Shown here piece after piece: positions 6,336 through 50,246 of a stretch of 64,000 nucleotides of DNA; the first letter of the stretch is position 1; every line of letters begins with the position of its first letter. Under the pieces are notes generated by a model. That model saw only the letters and a list, made by a program, of their open reading frames with translations. It made no database searches and was not told the DNA's origin. Made by a program: the position numbers and the translations under genes. The DNA is from Candidatus Omnitrophota bacterium (GTDB lineage Bacteria; Omnitrophota; Gorgyraeia; Ghiorseimicrobiales; Ghiorseimicrobiaceae). Where the stretch lies: positions 24,265 through 88,264 of the forward strand of contig JAUXSB010000009.1 of NCBI GenBank assembly GCA_030681595.1. The letters run 5' to 3'.

Positions 6336-6411
6336 TTTAAGTTATAGGTAAGAAGTTATGAGTTATGATTTATAACTTGTAACTCTTAAGCGACTGAAAG
6401 GAGCGAAGCAA

Positions 6412-12458: not shown

Positions 12459-13508
12459 ATGTTGGATTTAAGGACTTTGCTTATGGCGACCATAGAGAAA
12501 AAGGCTTCAGACTTGCATATTACCGATAACGCCCCTCCGATAATGCGCGTTTATGGAAAATTGATACATACGGAATTTCCCAAGTTAAACAAAGAAGATA
12601 CTAAAAAATTAATCTACAGTATGCTTAATGAGACACAAAAAGAAGCTTTTGAAAAAGATTTAGAACTGGATCTTTCGCTTGCGCTTCCCGGCCTTGACCG
12701 TTTCCGGGTAAATGTGCATATCCAGAGGGGTACTGTTGAGGCGGCGTTCCGCAGGATTCCCCTGATTATACCCACAGTTGAAGATCTAGGCCTGCCGCAA
12801 ATAGCGCTTGATTTGTCAAGAAAACCAAATGGCCTGGTTTTGGTGACCGGCCCCACAGGTGTAGGTAAGACGACAACGCTTGCGGCAATGGTGAATTTAA
12901 TTAATGCTGAACGGGAAAACATAATTATTTGTATTGAAGACCCGATAGAATTCTTGCATTACAACAAAAAAAGCATTATTAAGCAACGCGAAGTCTATTC
13001 TGATACTAAATCTTTTGCTGAGGCGTTACGGCATGCCCTTCGCCAGGATCCAAATGTTATTGTCGTCGGTGAAATGCGCGATTTAGAAACCATCGCGACA
13101 GCATTAACCGCCGCGGAAACCGGACATTTGGTTTTGGCTACTTTGCATACTCCGGATGCCCCACAGACGGTGCAAAGAATTATTGATGTTTTTCCTCCGC
13201 ACCAGCAGCAGCAGGTAAGGCTGCAACTATCCGACTGCTTGCAGGGTGTTGTATCACAGCTGCTCCTTCCCAGGGCTATCGGCGAGGGAAGAGTTTTGGC
13301 TACAGAAATAATGATCGGGACAAGCGGTATTAAGAACTTAATCCGTGAACAGGAGATAGAACAGATCCCTACCTTAATACAGACAGGCGCGCAATATGGC
13401 ATGAGGACGATGGATAAGTCTTTAAAGGAACTGTATAGGACGGGGATTATTTCTTATGAAACAGCGCTGGCTAGGGTTAAAAATCCTCAGGATTTCAGGA
13501 ATCTTTAA
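12459..13508 (+). CDS. pilT: type IV pilus retraction ATPase PilT
   Basis: 349 aa. Walker A GPTGVGKTTT, Asp box, Walker B and His box, with an N-terminal PilT N domain. Confidence 0.88.
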   Translation: MLDLRTLLMATIEKKASDLHITDNAPPIMRVYGKLIHTEFPKLNKEDTKKLIYSMLNETQKEAFEKDLELDLSLALPGLDRFRVNVHIQRGTVEAAFRRIPLIIPTVEDLGLPQIALDLSRKPNGLVLVTGPTGVGKTTTLAAMVNLINAERENIIICIEDPIEFLHYNKKSIIKQREVYSDTKSFAEALRHALRQDPNVIVVGEMRDLETIATALTAAETGHLVLATLHTPDAPQTVQRIIDVFPPHQQQQVRLQLSDCLQGVVSQLLLPRAIGEGRVLATEIMIGTSGIKNLIREQEIEQIPTLIQTGAQYGMRTMDKSLKELYRTGIISYETALARVKNPQDFRNL

Positions 13509-16364: not shown

Positions 16365-17036
16365 ATGGTTAAAACGATAGTTTTTTTGCCGGGATGGAGT
16401 TTTAAGGCGCAAATTTGGGCAGGGCAAGAGAAATATTTCTCGGAATTAGGCTTTAGGACCATCCTGTGTGAATTAGAAGAGTTAGACGGCTACATTAAAA
16501 GTACCCGGCTAGAAGAAACCGTATTTATTGCCTGGTCGCTTGGTTGGTTTAGGTTATTGGATGTTTTGAAAAGCAGCTTTTCTTTGCCTTGCGCAATAGT
16601 AGGGGTGTCTGCCGCCATAAAATTTAAAAAATCGTTATTACGCCTCATGATACAGGAATTTAAAAAAGACCATAGGAAGGCATTATCGGATTTTGACAGT
16701 TGGTTATTTAGCCCTGAAGAAAAAGATTCGTCCGGTTTCGGTATTTTAAACGGGCTAATAGCGCAATCAAGAATAAATGATAAAGAAAGATTACTCAGGG
16801 ATTTATTGTTTCTTAAGGCACTAGACTTAGAAGGTTTCTTAACTACTTTTCGCCTGCCTGTTTTTTTAGTGTCAGGTAATAAAGATATAATTTGCCCTAT
16901 CGATGAAGCGATGCATTTAAAGCCGGTTTTACCCGATAGTCAGATAAAGGTAATGGAAGCAGGTCATATTCCTTTTTTGACAAGTAGCGCAGAATTTAAC
17001 CATTGTATCGGCTCATACCTACTGAGCCTCCGATAA
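16365..17036 (+). CDS. alpha/beta-hydrolase, pimeloyl-ACP methyl ester esterase (BioH/BioG-like)
   Basis: 223 aa, nucleophile elbow AWSLG. Lies between bioF and bioC. Confidence 0.7.
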   Translation: MVKTIVFLPGWSFKAQIWAGQEKYFSELGFRTILCELEELDGYIKSTRLEETVFIAWSLGWFRLLDVLKSSFSLPCAIVGVSAAIKFKKSLLRLMIQEFKKDHRKALSDFDSWLFSPEEKDSSGFGILNGLIAQSRINDKERLLRDLLFLKALDLEGFLTTFRLPVFLVSGNKDIICPIDEAMHLKPVLPDSQIKVMEAGHIPFLTSSAEFNHCIGSYLLSLR

Positions 17037-17340
17037 ATAATAGGCACATTGGCTGAGACGATTTGGTTTTGGCTATATTGAAAGCCAAACCACTGCTTTC
17101 TAGCTTTGTTGGAGCGAGACAAGGAACGAGGACGCCGGCGTAGTCGCAGTACTACGCCAAAGACGAGTGACGCAGGCGCAGCCCAAAAGCGGCCAGCCCC
17201 TTCGGGGAAGGCGCATCTTTGGCCTGCTACCGCGTTGCTCCTCCTCGAAGTAGTGCATAGACTACATCTTCGTCGTCGCGCCTTGCATCAGGCTCAAATC
17301 TTCGCCTTCCGATGTACCCATTATTTATCGGAGGCTCAGT
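17021..17340. mobile_element. MITE-like 320-bp insert bounded by perfect 20-bp terminal inverted repeats, between bioH and bioC
   Basis: 17021-17040 (actgagcctccgataaataa) is the exact reverse complement of 17321-17340. The interior is GC-rich, unlike the flanks, and contains a cccc-ttcg-gggg hairpin. The left TIR supplies the bioH stop codon. The interior shares an identical 25-mer with the hisS 3' end (50128-50152). The ORF 17106..17342 inside it is probably spurious. Confidence 0.5.
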
Positions 17341-17353
17341 GAAAGGTTTAGCG

Positions 17354-18130
17354 ATGATTTCTAAAGAATTAATCCGGAGGAATTTTTCAAATGTAGCGGC
17401 CAATTATGACGAGCACGCTGTTATACAAAAAAAATCCGGCTGCGAGCTCGTCGGACAATTACGAAAAGATAAAAATAATTATGGAGCGATTTTAGATATA
17501 GGCACGGGGACAGGCGGTTTATTGAGGGATTTGTCTTTGGTGTGCAGGCCCGCGTTAATATGCGGTCTGGACATTTCTTCCAATATGCTTATAAAAGCCA
17601 GGGCGTCTGAAAAGAGTAGCTTCTTTATACAGGCCGATGCAGAAAACATTCCTTTTAAAAAAAACACATTTGATTTAGTCGTTTCTAATTTGGCTTATCA
17701 GTGGCTTATGGATTTAGATAGCGCTTTTATTCAACTAGCAGGGATTTTAAAAGAAAGAGGGATGTTTTATTTTACTTCTTTTGGCCGCCGGACGCTTTCC
17801 GAACTAAGGGAATGTCTCAAGTCGGTAAAAGAAGCATCCGATTACAACATTTTTCCCGCAAAGGAAGCAATGCATTCCAAATTAAAAAATGCTGGGTTTG
17901 CGAATATTAAAATTATCTCGAAAATAGAGAAAGAGTTTTTTGTTGATTCTTTCAGCCTTATCCGCTGGTTAAAATATTCTGGGGCAAACAGGATAGGCGT
18001 TCGGTTTAATGGGCTTGAGGCGCGGGGTGTACTTAAAGAAATGGATAAATTATATTTAGAGAAATACCCGGCTGGCGGCGGCGTATTTGCCTCGTTTGAA
18101 AGATATATTGTTAAAGCAGAAAAAAGATGA
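17354..18130 (+). CDS. bioC: malonyl-ACP O-methyltransferase
   Basis: SAM-methyltransferase motif ILDIGTGTG. The ORF track starts at 17312 inside the right TIR. The Met at 17354 (MISKELIRRNF) aligns with typical BioC N-termini. Confidence 0.82.
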   Translation: MISKELIRRNFSNVAANYDEHAVIQKKSGCELVGQLRKDKNNYGAILDIGTGTGGLLRDLSLVCRPALICGLDISSNMLIKARASEKSSFFIQADAENIPFKKNTFDLVVSNLAYQWLMDLDSAFIQLAGILKERGMFYFTSFGRRTLSELRECLKSVKEASDYNIFPAKEAMHSKLKNAGFANIKIISKIEKEFFVDSFSLIRWLKYSGANRIGVRFNGLEARGVLKEMDKLYLEKYPAGGGVFASFERYIVKAEKR

Positions 18131-23973: not shown

Positions 23974-24051
23974 CGGGGCGTGGCTCAGTTTGGCTAGAGC
24001 ACTTGAATGGGGTTCAAGGGGTCGACAGTTCGAGTCTGTCCGCCCCGACCA
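23974..24051 (+). tRNA. tRNA-Pro (anticodon GGG), with encoded CCA
   Basis: Manually folded. Acceptor CGGGGCG/CGCCCCG with the C1:G72 pair typical of tRNA-Pro and U8. D-stem GCTC/GAGC. Anticodon stem CTTGA/TCAAG with loop AT-GGG-GT. T-arm GACAG-TTCGAGT-CTGTC. Discriminator A, then CCA. Confidence 0.8.
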
Positions 24052-24135
24052 ATTTTATAGTGGTAAATATTTATTTAAAGTCAATAATACATCCTTGAAC
24101 CCAAGGTAACAATGGCAGTAACATATAAATAGATT

Positions 24136-32132: not shown

Positions 32133-34940
32133 ATGAACGAAATTCCCTCCCGATATAACCCCAAAGAAGTTGAAGAGAAATGGTATAAGTTTTGGGAAGA
32201 AAATAAGCTATTTTCCGCAAAGCCCACTCCTAATAAGAAACCTTTCTGTATAGTCATACCTCCGCCTAATGTGACCGGAATTTTACACATGGGGCATGCC
32301 TTGAATAATTTCATACAGGATATTTTAACCCGTTACCAGCGAATGAAAGGTAGTGAGGCGCTCTGGATACCTGGGACAGACCATGCCGGGATTGCCACGC
32401 AGAACGTGGTGGAGAAGAAATTGGCTAAAGAAGGTAAAAAACGGCAGGACTTAGGGCGCGATGAATTTTTAAAGGAAGTCTGGAAATGGCGCGAGGAATA
32501 CGGTTCAACTATTATCAAGCAGCTTAAGAAATTAGGCGCATCCTGTGATTGGGAGCGTACTCGTTTTACTATGGATGAGGGCTACAGTGATGCAGTGCTG
32601 GAAGTATTTATTCATTTATATAATAAAGGCCTCATTTATCGGGGAAAGCGTATTATTAATTGGTGCCCGCGTTGTTCAACCGCGCTTAGCGATGAAGAAG
32701 CTCCTTATAAGGAATTGGAAGGGCAGCTTTATTATATACGGTATCCAATTAAAGTCACCAGTCATACCCTTGCGGGCACAGGCCAGTCATACCCTTGCGG
32801 GCACAGGCCAGTCACCAGAAAAAAACAGAAAACTATCAATTACGTAGTAGTGGCGACGACGCGGCCGGAGACGATGTTGGGCGATACGGCGGTAGCGGTT
32901 AATCCCAAAGACAAGCGCTATAAAGACCTGATAGGAAAGACTGTTATTCTTCCTTTGGTTGAGCGGGAAATTAAAATTATCGCTGATAATTTTGTTGATC
33001 CGAAATTCGGTACAGGCGCGGTTAAGGTTACCCCTGCCCATGATCCTAACGATTACCAGATGGGGCTGCGGCATAATCTAGAGTTTATTAATATTATGCA
33101 GGTCGATGGTGTGTTGAATTCTAATGCCGGCGAATACGATGGTATGGATAGGTTTGAGGCACGCCAGGCAATAGTTAACGATTTAAAAGAGCGTAAGCTG
33201 CTGGAGAAAATAGAACCGCATATGCATTCCGTAGGGCATTGCTATCGTTGTTCAACCGTAATTGAGCCATATTTGTCCAACCAGTGGTTTGTGAAAATGA
33301 AGCCTTTATCCAAACTCGCGTTGGAAGCGGTGAAAAAAGGCGAAATTAAATTTTATCCTAAGCGTTGGACAAAGGTTTATTTAAACTGGATGGAAAATAT
33401 TCAGGATTGGTGTATCTCGCGGCAGATTTGGTGGGGGCATAGGATGCCTGTTTATTATTGTAAAAATTGCTACAAGCCTCAAGCTTCAGGCTCCAAGCTT
33501 CAAACTGAAAAAGAAAAGCCTGCAGCAGATAAGGGTATCTTTGTTTCAAAGAATAAGCCGGAGAAATGCCCGGATTGCGGCTCAAGCGATATTTATCAAG
33601 ACGAAGATGTGTTGGATACTTGGTTTTCTTCCTGGCTCTGGCCGTTTGCGACGTTTGGCTGGCCGTTTACAAGCTACAAGCCTCAAGCTGCAAGCGACAA
33701 GCAAAAAAGCCTGCAGCAGGACGAACTTAATTACTTCTACCCTACTTCGGTATTAGTGACTGCTCAGGAAATAATCTTTTTCTGGGTGGCGCGCATGATT
33801 ATGGCGGGCTTTGAATTTATGGGTAAAAAGCCGTTTTCCGATGTTTATATCCATGGTACGGTGCGCGACGATACCGGTAAAAAGATGTCTAAGTCTCTGG
33901 GTAATATTATTGACCCGCTTGAAATTATAAATGAGTTTGGATCAGACGCGCTTCGTTTCAGTATTATTTCCCTGACCAGCGTAGGCCAGGATGTCTTTTT
34001 ATCTAGGAATAAATTTGAATACGGCAGGAATTTCGCCAATAAAGTCTGGAATGCCTCGCGCTATACCATAATGAACCTTAAGCCAGAAGAAATAAATGTG
34101 GATTTGTGCGCCTATTCTAAAGGTATATCCGGGCTTGCCGAGAAGTGGATTTTAAGCCGGTTTTACAGCGCTTTAGATAGAATAGAGAAGGCGCTTAAGC
34201 AGTATAAAATTAACGAGGCGGCTAAGGTAATGTATGAATTTTTCTGGCATAATTTCTGTGATTGGTACCTGGAATTTTCTAAGTTAACATTGGGGAGGCG
34301 CCAAACGCAGGTTGTGCTTTATAAGGTATTGGAAAAATCCCTGCGTGTTATGCATCCGTTCTTGCCGCATCTGACCGAAGAAATATGGCATAACCTGCCG
34401 GGTACAAAATCGTCCATAATGACGGAAAGCTGGCCGCATTTGCAGAAACAGTTTATCTCAAAAACAACGGATAAACAGATGCAGGTTTTGATAGATTTAA
34501 TTTCCCTGATAAGGAATATCCGTTCTGAATGGCACATATTGGAACACGCTGAAATAGAATGTATTATTAAGACTACAGATAAGGCTTCAAAAAAACTCAT
34601 ACAGGAAAACGATATTTATCTAAAAAAATTAGCAAAGCTAGGCCAGATAAAAATCGTAGAGAAAGCCGAAGATGTTTCCATGTGCGCATCCGGCGTGGCA
34701 GGAAAACTCGATTTTTATATACCACTTGAAAAACTTATTGATTTGACAAAAGAAAAAGAGCGCCTGTCTAAACAAATACAGTCATTTGAGGCGCAGTTTA
34801 AGGCTTTGAGAGAAAGATTAAAGAATAAGGAATTTCTTAAAAAAGCGCCCAACGAAGTGGTGGAAAAAGAAAAAATCAGGTTAGAAGAGTTATCGAAATT
34901 AATCAAGCGTATTGGCGATAATTTAAAAGTATTGGGTTAA
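32133..34940 (+). CDS. valS: valine--tRNA ligase, carrying in-frame repeat insertions
   Basis: 935 aa. HIGH (PPNVTGILHMGHA), KMSKS, editing domain, and a C-terminal coiled coil. Confidence 0.93.
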   Translation: MNEIPSRYNPKEVEEKWYKFWEENKLFSAKPTPNKKPFCIVIPPPNVTGILHMGHALNNFIQDILTRYQRMKGSEALWIPGTDHAGIATQNVVEKKLAKEGKKRQDLGRDEFLKEVWKWREEYGSTIIKQLKKLGASCDWERTRFTMDEGYSDAVLEVFIHLYNKGLIYRGKRIINWCPRCSTALSDEEAPYKELEGQLYYIRYPIKVTSHTLAGTGQSYPCGHRPVTRKKQKTINYVVVATTRPETMLGDTAVAVNPKDKRYKDLIGKTVILPLVEREIKIIADNFVDPKFGTGAVKVTPAHDPNDYQMGLRHNLEFINIMQVDGVLNSNAGEYDGMDRFEARQAIVNDLKERKLLEKIEPHMHSVGHCYRCSTVIEPYLSNQWFVKMKPLSKLALEAVKKGEIKFYPKRWTKVYLNWMENIQDWCISRQIWWGHRMPVYYCKNCYKPQASGSKLQTEKEKPAADKGIFVSKNKPEKCPDCGSSDIYQDEDVLDTWFSSWLWPFATFGWPFTSYKPQAASDKQKSLQQDELNYFYPTSVLVTAQEIIFFWVARMIMAGFEFMGKKPFSDVYIHGTVRDDTGKKMSKSLGNIIDPLEIINEFGSDALRFSIISLTSVGQDVFLSRNKFEYGRNFANKVWNASRYTIMNLKPEEINVDLCAYSKGISGLAEKWILSRFYSALDRIEKALKQYKINEAAKVMYEFFWHNFCDWYLEFSKLTLGRRQTQVVLYKVLEKSLRVMHPFLPHLTEEIWHNLPGTKSSIMTESWPHLQKQFISKTTDKQMQVLIDLISLIRNIRSEWHILEHAEIECIIKTTDKASKKLIQENDIYLKKLAKLGQIKIVEKAEDVSMCASGVAGKLDFYIPLEKLIDLTKEKERLSKQIQSFEAQFKALRERLKNKEFLKKAPNEVVEKEKIRLEELSKLIKRIGDNLKVLG
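32755..32818 (+). repeat. in-frame repeat insertion A: 25-bp unit tcatacccttgcgggcacaggccag in tandem x2, flanked by tcaccag direct repeats
   Basis: Read directly. The two copies are translated in different frames (SHTLAGTGQ, then SYPCGHRPV). Net insert 57 bp. The same unit recurs in nadC. Confidence 0.85.
33468..33533 (+). repeat. in-frame repeat insertion B copy 1 (heptamer-based: five NNCAAGC units plus aaaagcctgcagcag)
   Basis: ctacaagcctcaagct…aagcctgcagcag recurs 200 bp downstream. It sits between the two Cys pairs of the valS zinc knuckle. Confidence 0.7.
33668..33725 (+). repeat. in-frame repeat insertion B copy 2
   Basis: acaagc tacaagc ctcaagc tgcaagc gacaagc aaaaaagcctgcagcagg. 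The 3' block is read in a different frame from copy 1. Confidence 0.7.
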
Positions 34941-34943
34941 ATT

Positions 34944-35843
34944 ATGCAGAAAAAAGAAATTATCAATATCGTAAAAAATGCCCTTAGGGAAGATGCCGCG
35001 GATAGAGATATTACTACGCAGGCGCTTATTCCTCTGGATTTAAGGGCAGCGGCAAGGATTATTACCAAAGAAAATGGGGTAGTTTGCGGATTAAGCATTG
35101 CGGAACTCGCCTTTAAGCTGTTGGATAAAAATATCAAGTTTAAGGCAAAAGTCAAAGATGGTGCGGTAATAAAAAATGGTAGTTGTTTGGCAGAGATTTA
35201 CGGTAGGGCACGGCCAATTTTATCTGCAGAACGTACCGCACTCAATTTCTTAGGGAATCTTTGTGGAATAGCCGCGTTTACCCGTCAATTCGTAGAAAAA
35301 GTTAAACCGTATAAAACTAAGATTCTGGATACCAGAAAAACTACGCCGAATTTAAGAATACTGGAAAAATACGCGGTGCGTTGCGGCGGCGGGTTCAACT
35401 ACCGTTTTGATTTAAGCGAACAAATATTGGTTAAAGATAACCACATAAGAATCACAAATGACAAATTACAAATGGCAAATTTAAAATATGTCGTTGAGGC
35501 CGTACGAAAAAACGTGAAGGGTAAAAAAATTGAGATTGAGGTAGATAATTTAAGGCAGTTCAAAGAAGTAATTGCTGTGGCGCCCGATATTATCATGCTG
35601 GATAATTTTAATCTGTCTGATATCAAAAAAGCGGTAAAGATTAAAAATCGGTCACCAGTCATACCCTTGCGGGCACAGGCCAGCCACCGGTCGCCGGTAA
35701 AACTAGAAGCATCTGGTGGAATAACTTTAAGAAATATTAAGAAAGTTGCTGCAACCGGCGTAGATTTTATCTCTATCGGCGCGCTCACCCATTCAGTTAA
35801 ATCCTTGGATTTATCTTTAGAAATCACTAAAAAATCTGCGTAA
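34944..35843 (+). CDS. nadC: nicotinate-nucleotide pyrophosphorylase (carboxylating), carrying an in-frame repeat insertion
   Basis: 299 aa QPRTase. The usual C-terminal …LEASGGI motif is interrupted by the insert. Confidence 0.88.
   Translation: MQKKEIINIVKNALREDAADRDITTQALIPLDLRAAARIITKENGVVCGLSIAELAFKLLDKNIKFKAKVKDGAVIKNGSCLAEIYGRARPILSAERTALNFLGNLCGIAAFTRQFVEKVKPYKTKILDTRKTTPNLRILEKYAVRCGGGFNYRFDLSEQILVKDNHIRITNDKLQMANLKYVVEAVRKNVKGKKIEIEVDNLRQFKEVIAVAPDIIMLDNFNLSDIKKAVKIKNRSPVIPLRAQASHRSPVKLEASGGITLRNIKKVAATGVDFISIGALTHSVKSLDLSLEITKKSA
35651..35690 (+). repeat. in-frame insertion of repeat A (single 25-bp unit, flanks tcaccag / ccaccgg) in nadC
   Basis: Identical 25-mer to the valS copies, translated in the third possible frame (VIPLRAQAS). 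Net ~39 bp. Confidence 0.85.
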
Positions 35844-44822: not shown

Positions 44823-44903
44823 AAGTTATAAGTGGTGAGTTATGAGTTATAAATTTAAAAAAGTAACTTAAACTTGTAACTTATAATTTATAACTCATAA
44901 CTT
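44823..44903. repeat. ~80-bp AT-rich near-perfect palindrome (gagttatgagttataaatt … aatttataactcataactt)
   Basis: 19-bp arms with nested inner arms. The same agttatgagttat / ataacttgtaact motif occurs at 6353-6387. Confidence 0.8.
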
Positions 44904-44909
44904 CCAATA

Positions 44910-48879: not shown

Positions 48880-50181
48880 ATGTCATTTGTTTTTCGGGCT
48901 GTGCGCGGAACGAAAGATATTTTGCCTGATGAGGCAGAATATTTGCGCCATATTGAAGTTAAGGCGCGGGAGATTTCTTCTCTTTATGGATATAGAGAGG
49001 TTATTACTCCTGTGATAGAAAACCGCGATTTATTCGTCCGTTCCCTGGGAAAGGACACGGAGGTTATCGGAAAGCAGATGTTTATCATCGAGCGGGGAGA
49101 TGATATTATCGCCCTGCGTCCCGAAGCAACTGCCGGAGTAATCCGCGCTTATTTGGAAAATAATTTAAATAGCCGCAACTTGTTAGCCAAGTTTTATTAT
49201 TTCGGGCCGATGTTCAGGGCGGAACGTCCGCAAAAAGGGCGCCTGCGGCAGTTTCACCATCTGGGGGTTGAAGCAGTAGGTTCATCCAGCCCCTTGTTAG
49301 ATGTGGAAATTATTTCTTTGGCAGAGGTAATCTTAAAAAATATCGGCATAAGCGGTTTTAAAATAAAAATCAATACTTTGGGGTGTGTCGAAGATAAAAA
49401 AGCATTTGCTGAAAAGCTGCGCGTTATTTTAGGGGGGAAAATTTCTGATTTTTGCCAGGATTGCCGGGAAAGGTTTGATCGTAATGTCTTTCGGCTCCTT
49501 GACTGTAAAAACAGCTCCTGTAAAAATATTATCTTAGGCCTTAATATTAAGCGTACGGATTATCTTTGCGGGGAATGTTTAGAACATTTTGATACGGTTT
49601 TAGCTGGATTAAAGAATATAGGCGTAAACTATGAAGAGAGCGCGCATTTAGTGCGGGGCTTAGATTATTATACGCGCACGGTTTTTGAGATTACGCATTC
49701 AGAATTAGGCGCTCAGGATGCCGTAGGTGCCGGAGGGAGATACGATAATTTGGTGGAGGAGTTGGGCGGAGAGCCGACGGCTGCCATAGGTTTTGCTTTT
49801 GGAGTCGAGAGGCTGTTGTTAGTATCAAGTGCCAAGTGCCAAGTGCCAAGTAAAGATTTAGTTTTTTTGATTGCTTTAGGCAAGGGGGCGGAGGCAGCGA
49901 GCGTTAAGCTGTTGTATAGCCTGCGCCAAAACGGGATAAAGGCAGATACGCTTTATGAAGAGAAATCTCTTAAAGGGGCAATGCGTAGAGCTAATGATTT
50001 AGGCGCAAAATATGTTTTGATTTTAGGCGAAAACGAGTTAAAGAAAAACGTGGTAGTTTTTAAGGATATGGCTTCGGGGGAGCAAAGAGAGATAAAGACA
50101 GAAGAAGTAATAGCCGAACTTATGGCTTTGGCTATATTGAAAGCCAAACCATTGCCTTATCGGCTTAAAGGTCAAATATAG
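48880..50181 (+). CDS. hisS: histidine--tRNA ligase
   Basis: 433 aa class-II aaRS with a HisRS anticodon-binding C-terminus. Contains a (caagtgc)x3 tract (49827-49853) and a repeat-derived 3' end. Confidence 0.92.
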   Translation: MSFVFRAVRGTKDILPDEAEYLRHIEVKAREISSLYGYREVITPVIENRDLFVRSLGKDTEVIGKQMFIIERGDDIIALRPEATAGVIRAYLENNLNSRNLLAKFYYFGPMFRAERPQKGRLRQFHHLGVEAVGSSSPLLDVEIISLAEVILKNIGISGFKIKINTLGCVEDKKAFAEKLRVILGGKISDFCQDCRERFDRNVFRLLDCKNSSCKNIILGLNIKRTDYLCGECLEHFDTVLAGLKNIGVNYEESAHLVRGLDYYTRTVFEITHSELGAQDAVGAGGRYDNLVEELGGEPTAAIGFAFGVERLLLVSSAKCQVPSKDLVFLIALGKGAEAASVKLLYSLRQNGIKADTLYEEKSLKGAMRRANDLGAKYVLILGENELKKNVVVFKDMASGEQREIKTEEVIAELMALAILKAKPLPYRLKGQI

Positions 50182-50246
50182 CAGGTCGCACGTATCAGCT
50201 AAAAAACTTAATGTTTAGTCCTTAGTTTTTAATACTTAATATTCTG

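Follow-up and report, generated by a model that had tools for sequence, protein, structure and literature searches.

The stretch of DNA analysed here, called the window throughout, covers 64,000 nucleotides (nt) of contig JAUXSB010000009.1 (assembly GCA_030681595.1) from a Candidatus Omnitrophota bacterium and carries, in its biotin (bio) operon, an element of 318 nt lying between the genes bioH and bioC. The element has the organization of a miniature inverted-repeat transposable element (MITE), and its structure, its copies in other genomes and the way in which it could have reached its present position are the subject of this work. The two genes, the element and its target site are located as follows.

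16365-17036, plus strand: bioH, encoding a pimeloyl-acyl carrier protein methyl ester esterase (alpha/beta hydrolase), with its last four codons and stop drawn from the TA copy and the left repeat.
17020-17021, no strand: left TA target-site copy, positions 2-3 of the bioH codon CTA.
17022-17339, plus strand: the MITE proper, 318 nt, CTGAG...CTCAG, 54% GC, non-coding.
17022-17052, plus strand: left terminal inverted repeat, the 5' strand of stem P1, with the bioH stop TAA inside it (17034-17036).
17309-17339, plus strand: right terminal inverted repeat, the 3' strand of stem P1, with GGAGG at 17330-17334.
17340-17341, no strand: right target-site copy, degenerate, TG in place of TA.
17354-18130, plus strand: bioC, encoding an S-adenosylmethionine-dependent methyltransferase of 258 amino acids (aa), starting 14 nt past the element and matching the start in relatives.

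Each arm of the inverted repeat measures 32 nt (17021-17052 and 17309-17340), the two being 91% complementary, and the element proper has 31-nt terminal inverted repeats of the form CTGAG-CC-nnnn-ATAAATAATGG... An earlier note on this DNA had described exactly reverse-complementary termini bounding an insert of 320 base pairs (bp) at 17021-17340. The inverted repeat stands, perfect over the outermost 21 nt and with arms extending to 31-32 nt, and the limits are corrected to 17022-17339, A 17021 and T 17340 being target-site bases. The GC-rich interior that the note set against AT-rich flanks was found as described (56-63% against 33-43% GC). No second long inverted repeat with arms less than 600 nt apart exists in the window, and the family's plus orientation, as defined for the 318-nt element, is the direction of the bio operon. 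An internal open reading frame (ORF) of 78 aa has no Pfam match, and the insertions and deletions between family copies are not multiples of three, disrupting any reading frame.

Comparison with the two closest BioH homologues (L002 and L003, 84% and 79% identity, both 226 aa) reveals the unoccupied state of the locus. In both relatives bioH and bioC overlap by 11 nt with no spacer, and the junction reads ...CATACCTA|AAAAGGTTTAGCGATG, given also as ...CATACCTA|AAAAGGTTTAGCGATGATTTCT, with CCTA|AAAAGG at the insertion point and a single TA. The bioH and bioC flanks are colinear with those of the relatives to the base, the window having a net 319 nt extra. Since the junction of L002 and L003 is without the element, the bioH-bioC element is a lineage-specific insertion, and the empty sites for which the earlier note had recommended a search are those two. 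Reciprocal presence and absence was also observed: L003 has its own diverged copy (L003:17343-17637) directly after a tRNA-Pro gene, and the window is without a copy at the corresponding position (~24052-24060). In the window ARAGORN places tRNA-Pro(GGG) at 23974-24051. A bioH-bioC fusion or intron had been considered, as removing 320 nt puts the two ORFs in frame; it was rejected, the genes of the relatives being separate and overlapping and the difference being 319 nt.

The insertion altered the end of one gene and left the beginning of the other in place. BioH of the relatives ends ...YLKRFSDDF or ...YLKGLSDDF and that of the window ends ...YLLSLR, followed by TAA within the left repeat, the native tail KRFSDDF or KGLSDDF having been replaced by LSLR; the proposal that the left repeat supplies the last codons and the stop of bioH is thus upheld by the comparison. 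The longest bioC ORF (272 aa) begins at 17312, inside the right repeat. Because BioC of the two relatives, 258 aa in each, starts at an ATG equivalent to 17354, the 17312 start is an artefact of the right repeat and the start at 17354, already suspected in the note, is the real one. The GGAGG of the right repeat lies 19 nt from the bioC ATG, and the native AAAGG, 7 nt upstream, is kept.

An assembly or binning artefact, with a chimeric join at the repeat, could produce a junction of this sort, and assemblers do often break inside the element: contigs L001, L014, L020, L026, L037, L049, L059, L061, L065, L071, L076, L080, L083 and L085 are broken within it, at contig or locus ends, and L001, from an independent Logan assembly of the same organism, stops at window position 17297. 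Up to that point L001 is identical to the window across bioH, the left junction and 276 nt of element, so that the junction is not an artefact of a single assembly, and dozens of other contigs span complete copies. Together with the base-to-base colinearity of both flanks, these observations make an artefact of any kind very improbable.

The element is one member of a family scattered over many loci. A scan of one genome per species found the repeat's exact 20-mer at 27 loci, nearly all of them Omnitrophota, with up to 7 loci per metagenome-assembled genome (MAG) and with the complete genome of Ca. Velamenicoccus archaeovorus among the hosts; a metagenome contig scan with the interior and repeat pattern added 64 further loci. 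A profile built from 21 copies matches the window copy across positions 1-286 (E = 5.9e-79), and its search of 93 loci gave 90 clusters (copies or fragments), 67 of them with both ends; most of the partial clusters lie where a contig or locus ends. The non-redundant full copies number 57 and are typically ~270-300 nt long (235-421 nt overall). The same search found no further copy in the 64-kb window at E < 1e-3. Partial matches (TTGGTTTTGGCTA) at 13128 and 23183 were dismissed as chance, lying within the coding sequence of conserved protein motifs. Almost all copies are in Omnitrophota, to which the family is nearly confined.

Some host labels deserve separate mention. L013 (CAYYFL010000013.1, from MAG CAYYFL01, labelled 'uncultured Planctomycetia') has an orthologous insertion and identical flanks with L005 (NZ_CP019384.1, Ca. 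Velamenicoccus archaeovorus LiM), and L011 and L016 (CAZOSW01, a MAG labelled Planctomycetales) also carry family copies; both MAGs are probably Omnitrophota. In a Bacteroidales-labelled MAG the exact 20-mer occurs at L019:1117-1136 with the rest of the element not around it, which could be either a chance match (about one is expected per 20-mer in 596 Gb) or a solo remnant.

The copies lie at unrelated loci and mark their target. Identity between copies at different loci reaches 97-100% in some cases: L008 and L010 do not differ at all although their sites do, and many further pairs from different sites share 95-99% of their positions. The element adjoins dozens of unrelated genes, including thiS/thiG, xerD-like, ribF-like and alr-like genes and tRNA-Pro. 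TA stands 5' of the element in 45 of the 57 non-redundant copies, 3' in 50 and on both flanks in 43. The flank logo, T(-3) TA|TA A/G(+3), is mirror-symmetric and describes a palindromic T-TA-R target whose central TA is duplicated, this TA often being part of the stop codon of a TAA(n)ATG gene junction. Reduced forms occur as well. At L006:4079-4108 a 30-nt internally deleted copy, bordered by TA at each end and retaining 20 nt of the left and 10 nt of the right terminus, lies between thiS and thiG and lengthens the ThiS ORF beyond its GG end, and solo right repeats lie directly 5' of a start codon at L018:7042-7061 and L042:10098-10117. The mobile, MITE-like nature that the earlier note had attributed to the insert is therefore borne out by empty sites, dispersed copies and TA target-site duplications, and the search for other family copies returned many such duplicated sites at unrelated loci.

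The same observations bear on a reading of the insert as a conserved bioH-bioC spacer or biotin-operon leader, for instance an attenuator or a riboswitch-like structure. Its location in the bio operon and its high degree of structure would suit such a role, which is refuted by the empty sites in the two closest relatives and by the dispersed copies beside unrelated genes, and which is left with a negligible probability. A terminator consensus is lacking too: no hairpin followed by a T-tract is present on either strand of 16800-17500, which also gives no support to the note's suggestion that the insert may act as an intra-operon terminator. Of the two other roles named there, that of a mobile element is supported and that of an RNA-processing site is a mere possibility. 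A promoter consensus was not found within the element.

Terminal repeats, TA duplication, dispersed near-identical copies and presence or absence at orthologous sites identify the element, with high confidence, as a TA-duplicating MITE; as such it adds a new example to a well-known class. The reading that we prefer, with a probability of roughly 0.8, is that 17022-17339 is one copy of an Omnitrophota MITE family whose movement depends on a transposase supplied in trans. This enzyme would duplicate TA and would probably be of the IS630/Tc1-mariner type; its assignment to the IS630 type is suggested by sequence features and held with moderate confidence. A cut-and-paste DDE transposase, most likely of that type, would act in trans through a 2-bp staggered cut at TA and would have inserted the element into the 11-nt overlap of bioH and bioC. 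The last seven residues of BioH would thereby have been exchanged for LSLR and a stop from the left repeat, with the bioC start codon and its weak AAAGG Shine-Dalgarno sequence left intact. The event would have set 318 nt of strongly folding sequence between the cistrons, which are probably still read through in one bio operon mRNA. In such a transcript the terminal stem P1 would base-pair the stretch on which ribosomes finish the upstream cistron to the stretch immediately preceding the downstream start codon, and this pairing could keep downstream translation dependent on upstream translation or could serve as an RNase III site.

Counting ORFs of at least 60 codons, an upstream ORF runs into the left repeat and stops, and the next ORF on the same strand starts 1-28 nt past the element in 29 of the 57 copies (27 independent sites). 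Those stops lie at nt 4, 15 or 35-36 of the element and, in a single copy, at nt 23; whatever the frame, a stop codon is reached in the first 35 nt from the left. Reconstruction of the empty sites gives typical compact junctions (TAAATG, TAATG or TTAAAATG, for example), in which the TA is part of the upstream stop codon. In the window subfamily the right repeat ends ...CGGAGGCTCAG, with GGAGG 5 nt from the right end, so that at the commonest junctions it precedes the ATG by 7-9 nt; the family as a whole does not share this feature, other subfamilies having GATGG, GTTGG or CATGG instead.

Orientation is strongly biased. After orthologous insertions were merged into 52 independent sites, 37 elements were co-directional with the flanking genes and 9 opposite (p = 4e-5). 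Elements of up to 320 nt were co-directional at 37 sites and opposite at 4, and the long variants with apical inserts were opposite at 5 of 5 independent sites. These long variants (344-421 nt; L005, L013, L087, L017, L022, L030, L062 and L084) carry apical inserts that in some cases are internally repeated. The strand of the neighbouring genes was tried as a means of separating transcription from replication as the cause of the bias and failed; because nearly every locus has all its genes on one strand, the bias may track transcription or replication alike.

The interior of the element is strongly structured. Folding of the 340-nt stretch gave -157 kcal/mol for the plus strand (z = -9.1) and -173 kcal/mol for the minus strand (z = -12.9) relative to shuffled sequences. 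For single sequences the thermodynamic optimum is one long rod; comparison of 46 copies favours a fold of four branches.

P1: terminal stem of ~40 bp, its helix 1 being 95% paired over the 46 copies and positions 8-9 covarying with their partners.
P2, 17109-17186, plus strand: long local hairpin of the left arm, core GGCGTAGTC-GCAG-TACTACGCC.
P3, 17197-17207, plus strand: apical mini-hairpin CCCC-TTC-GGGG; other copies have variable inserts of up to ~130 nt here.
P4, 17221-17294, plus strand: long local hairpin of the right arm, core AGTAGTG-CATAG-ACTACAT.

Under the four-branch model 94.4% of the cells are paired, 33 pairs and 164 cells are changed on both sides, and the covariation score is 0.148; the rod reaches 90.2%, 24, 73 and 0.087, respectively, and was rejected as the conserved structure, its covariation support lying below that of the four-branch model. 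For the four-branch model shuffled controls scored 0.077, with none of 500 shuffles reaching the observed value, and slid controls scored 0.025-0.040. Because the copies are related by descent the shuffle control overstates significance, and more trust can be placed in the slid controls and in the number of distinct pair types. In P2 compensatory pairs occur (numbering of alignment A7) at 108:150 (AU 26, GC 14), 112:146, 120:139 and 126:133 (UA 32, CG 11), and in P4 at 276:345, 277:344, 300:322, 305:317 (GC 31, CG 9, UA 5, AU 1) and 306:316. The P4 stem AGT/ACT is changed to GCC/GGC, ATC/GAT, ACC/GGT or GTC/GAC with P2 unchanged in the same copies, so that pairing between the arms is lost and the local hairpin is kept. 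Repeat positions 8-11 likewise covary (TCCG/CGGA, ATCA/TGAT, AACA/TGTT, ATGA/TCAT, ATCC/GGAT). With two invariant G-U pairs left out of the count, mismatches of the G-U and A-C types have about the same frequency, and the mean folding energy is -154 kcal/mol for the antisense and -148 kcal/mol for the sense strand, the latter being the more stable in only 11 of the 46 copies. The fold may hence be that of either strand, as RNA or as DNA.

These properties could be those of a hairpin-dependent element that moves as single-stranded DNA, of the REPIN/RAYT or IS200/IS605-derived type, whose enzyme would recognise P2 and P4 and whose orientation bias would reflect insertion according to the replicating strand. 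The retention of P2 and P4 by compensation where inter-arm pairing is lost would agree with it, as would the parity of G-U and A-C mismatches, which suits DNA, or folding of either strand, better than a single RNA. The 37:9 bias could equally follow replication, the genes being one-stranded in nearly every locus, and GTAG, known as the head motif of REP sequences, is present in the stems of the hairpins, possibly by coincidence. The proposal is nevertheless improbable in view of the target site and termini: TA on both flanks in 43 of 57 copies, an empty site with a single TA and 31-nt terminal repeats with conserved tips are features not known from REPINs or IS200/IS605 elements, which insert beside a fixed tetra- or pentanucleotide. 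A Y1/HUH gene was not noticed in the inspected loci, in which no systematic search was aimed at such genes.

Other aspects of the family would be accounted for if the element were mainly a structured RNA within operon mRNAs, with mobility secondary. Selection would then act on its use to the host, for example as a site of RNase III processing or of stabilisation, as an insulator or in translational coupling. Sense orientation at 37 of the 46 orientable sites, the exact same-strand junctions at 27 independent sites, a covariation-supported fold with z = -9.1 in the window copy, stops in all frames within 35 nt and the GGAGG before the ATG in the window subfamily all point in that direction. Opposed to it are the lack of a G-U excess over A-C, the better average folding of the antisense strand, the replacement of GGAGG in other subfamilies and the junction of close relatives that does without the element; moreover, host selection on single copies alone cannot explain conservation across dispersed copies. 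Rfam 15 at the gathering score gave no match in the whole window, where tRNA-Pro(GGG) was likewise unlisted, and with the window copy and the canonical copy L012 at E up to 10 it gave chance-level hits only (<19 bits). Selection for such a host role is thus an unlikely explanation of the family.

Several points also weigh against the preferred reading of a MITE moved by a TA-duplicating transposase. The right TA copy of the window element is TG, the net insertion being 319 nt rather than 320. The interior is conserved over its full length, with P2 and P4 kept by compensatory changes that a transposase recognising the termini only would not need, and the 37:9 orientation bias is not predicted by symmetric repeats. 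An autonomous partner with the same repeats and a transposase gene was not found in ~0.7 Mb of flanking DNA, where the search covered partner repeats at every locus (up to four mismatches allowed), pairs of relaxed terminal motifs spaced by 600-3500 nt, and ORFs beside solo repeats; the ten most basic distinct ORFs of 250-460 aa, read by eye without a domain search, resembled housekeeping genes (RibF-, XerD-, Alr- and TilS-like) and included no transposase. Plasmid and phage BLAST searches and a scan of viral contigs with the MITE pattern gave no match either. The class of the transposase is indicated solely by the TA duplication and the repeats, and read-through, RNase III processing and translational coupling enter the reading only as predictions.

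Part of this evidence would be accommodated if the element were a fold-dependent mobile module adapted to operon junctions, in which the four-branch structure is needed for spread, P1 preserves translational coupling, or both. Spread could then proceed by recognition of hairpins or a cruciform, or by strand-specific, replication-coupled insertion by an undescribed TA-duplicating enzyme, and for coupling the terminal stem would bring together, by base pairing, the place where upstream translation ends and the ribosome-binding region of the next gene. Such a module, or such coupling, would help to explain why copies lie almost only at same-strand gene junctions; strand-specific insertion would account for the single orientation, and a requirement for spread would account for the compensatory changes of the interior. 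We regard this possibility as tentative and rather unlikely, and the reading as a TA-duplicating MITE mobilised in trans is retained.

Among known mobile repeats, the Stowaway plant MITEs, derived from Tc1/mariner, share the TA duplication, the terminal inverted repeats and the ability of the whole element to fold into a hairpin; they are eukaryotic, unrelated in sequence and, unlike the Omnitrophota element, without an operon-junction context. REPINs, the REP doublets mobilised by RAYT, are abundant, non-coding sequences made of two inverted imperfect palindromes that form local hairpins or one long hairpin, and differ in being typically extragenic after convergent genes and in lacking target duplication and conserved terminal repeats. 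The bcr1 element of the Bacillus cereus group, reported to be transcribed with a conserved fold, duplicates TTTAT, whereas the Omnitrophota element duplicates TA. In CIR of Caulobacter and Brucella two independently folding arms are joined by a linker (PMC2229807). CIR and bcr1, both small bacterial repeats, share conserved predicted RNA arms with the Omnitrophota element. CIR is without terminal repeats and its mobility is unclear; neither CIR nor bcr1 combines a 31-nt terminal stem with TA duplication.

Classical bacterial MITEs are typically shorter than 200 bp and have terminal inverted repeats, TA at their termini, co-transcription with genes and long stem-loop transcripts (PMC2229807). 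The Omnitrophota element behaves like them; it is about twice as large (318 nt in the window copy, within the family range given above) and differs further in its covariation-supported four-branch fold, its almost exclusive placement at same-strand junctions and its marked orientation bias. The Correia or NEMIS repeats of Neisseria are non-coding, measure ~107-155 bp, duplicate TA and carry terminal inverted repeats of ~24-26 bp; they are often co-transcribed with their neighbours, the long-stem transcript having been proposed as an RNase III substrate (PMC2229807). The Omnitrophota element resembles them in being non-coding and in its terminal inverted repeats and TA duplication; by description, not by sequence, it differs in being larger, in being restricted to Omnitrophota, in having four branches instead of a single stem and in its strong orientation bias. 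RUP of Streptococcus pneumoniae, a 107-bp MITE at TA, has been assigned to the transposase of an IS630-family element (IS630-Spn1) because of repeat similarity and TA targets (PMC2229807). For RUP the parent insertion sequence is known, and for the Omnitrophota element none was found. The literature searched contained no paper linking Omnitrophota and MITEs and no description of the element; a paper on a 'mobile intron' in Velamenicoccus proved unrelated, dealing with a group I intron in 23S rRNA.

The window copy contains a second insertion. A 25-mer within it occurs exactly twice, at 17068-17092 and at 50127-50151 in hisS, and 0 of 100 shuffles matched it. The earlier note had recognised this identity, one base out in hisS (50128-50152), and had taken it as the trace of a degraded family copy. 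The identity is real, and the derivation is not: the 25-mer lies in a 45-nt insert peculiar to the window copy, missing from all other aligned family members (20 in one alignment and 45 in another), and recurs in an insert in hisS.

17064-17108, plus strand: nested 45-nt double-hairpin mini-element carrying the 25-mer, foreign to the MITE family.
50123-50210, plus strand: insert of ~88 nt at the 3' end of hisS, flanked by AACTTA, not a MITE copy.

In the hisS insert the first 36 nt repeat the mini-element hairpin and agree with the nested insert at 33 of these 36 positions. HisS has 420 aa in relatives and 433 aa in the window owing to the insert, and the mini-element replaces its C-terminus NSILNT with MALAILKAKPLPYRLKGQI. 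The layout of the ~45-nt mini-element is TGGYTTTGGCTAT(AT)TGRAAGCCAAACCA followed by a second short hairpin, which covaries (GCT/AGC, GCC/GGC, GGCC/GGCC). A third related mini-element, on the minus strand of a different Omnitrophota contig (L070:7868-7901), forms an in-frame part of an NrnA-like ORF, and compensatory changes preserve its second hairpin. The mini-hairpin pattern had no match in viral contigs. Because the 45-nt insert is unique in the family and recurs in a lineage-specific hisS insert, the 25-mer marks a second, much smaller element nested in the MITE.

Two other repeats were observed in the window. A 36-nt GC-rich repeat, GTCACCAGTCATACCCTTGCGGGCACAGGCCAGTCA, is present in the valS ORF (32754-32814, two overlapping copies) and in a nadC-like ORF (35651-35686) and is translated in both; it looks like an in-frame intragenic mini-insertion resembling, by analogy, the Rickettsia palindromic elements. 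A 27-nt AT-rich sequence, GAAGTTATGAGTTATGATTTATAACTT, lies at 6352-6378, and its reverse complement (89% match) lies 38.5 kb away at 44878-44904, just 5' of dnaE.

The family represents a transposon that is active, or was recently so, in a phylum of ultra-small and largely uncultured bacteria. It explains spurious extensions of genes at their 5' and 3' ends, among them the bioC ORF of 272 aa and the changed C-termini of BioH and ThiS, as well as the frequent contig breaks in Omnitrophota MAGs, and its filled and empty sites provide strain-level markers for Omnitrophota populations. The element repeatedly lands at the stop/start junctions of tight operons without obviously destroying them. Moreover, if its orientation bias and fold are functional, it would offer a natural system for studying how mobile elements and polycistronic operons are made compatible, or how structure may guide transposition.

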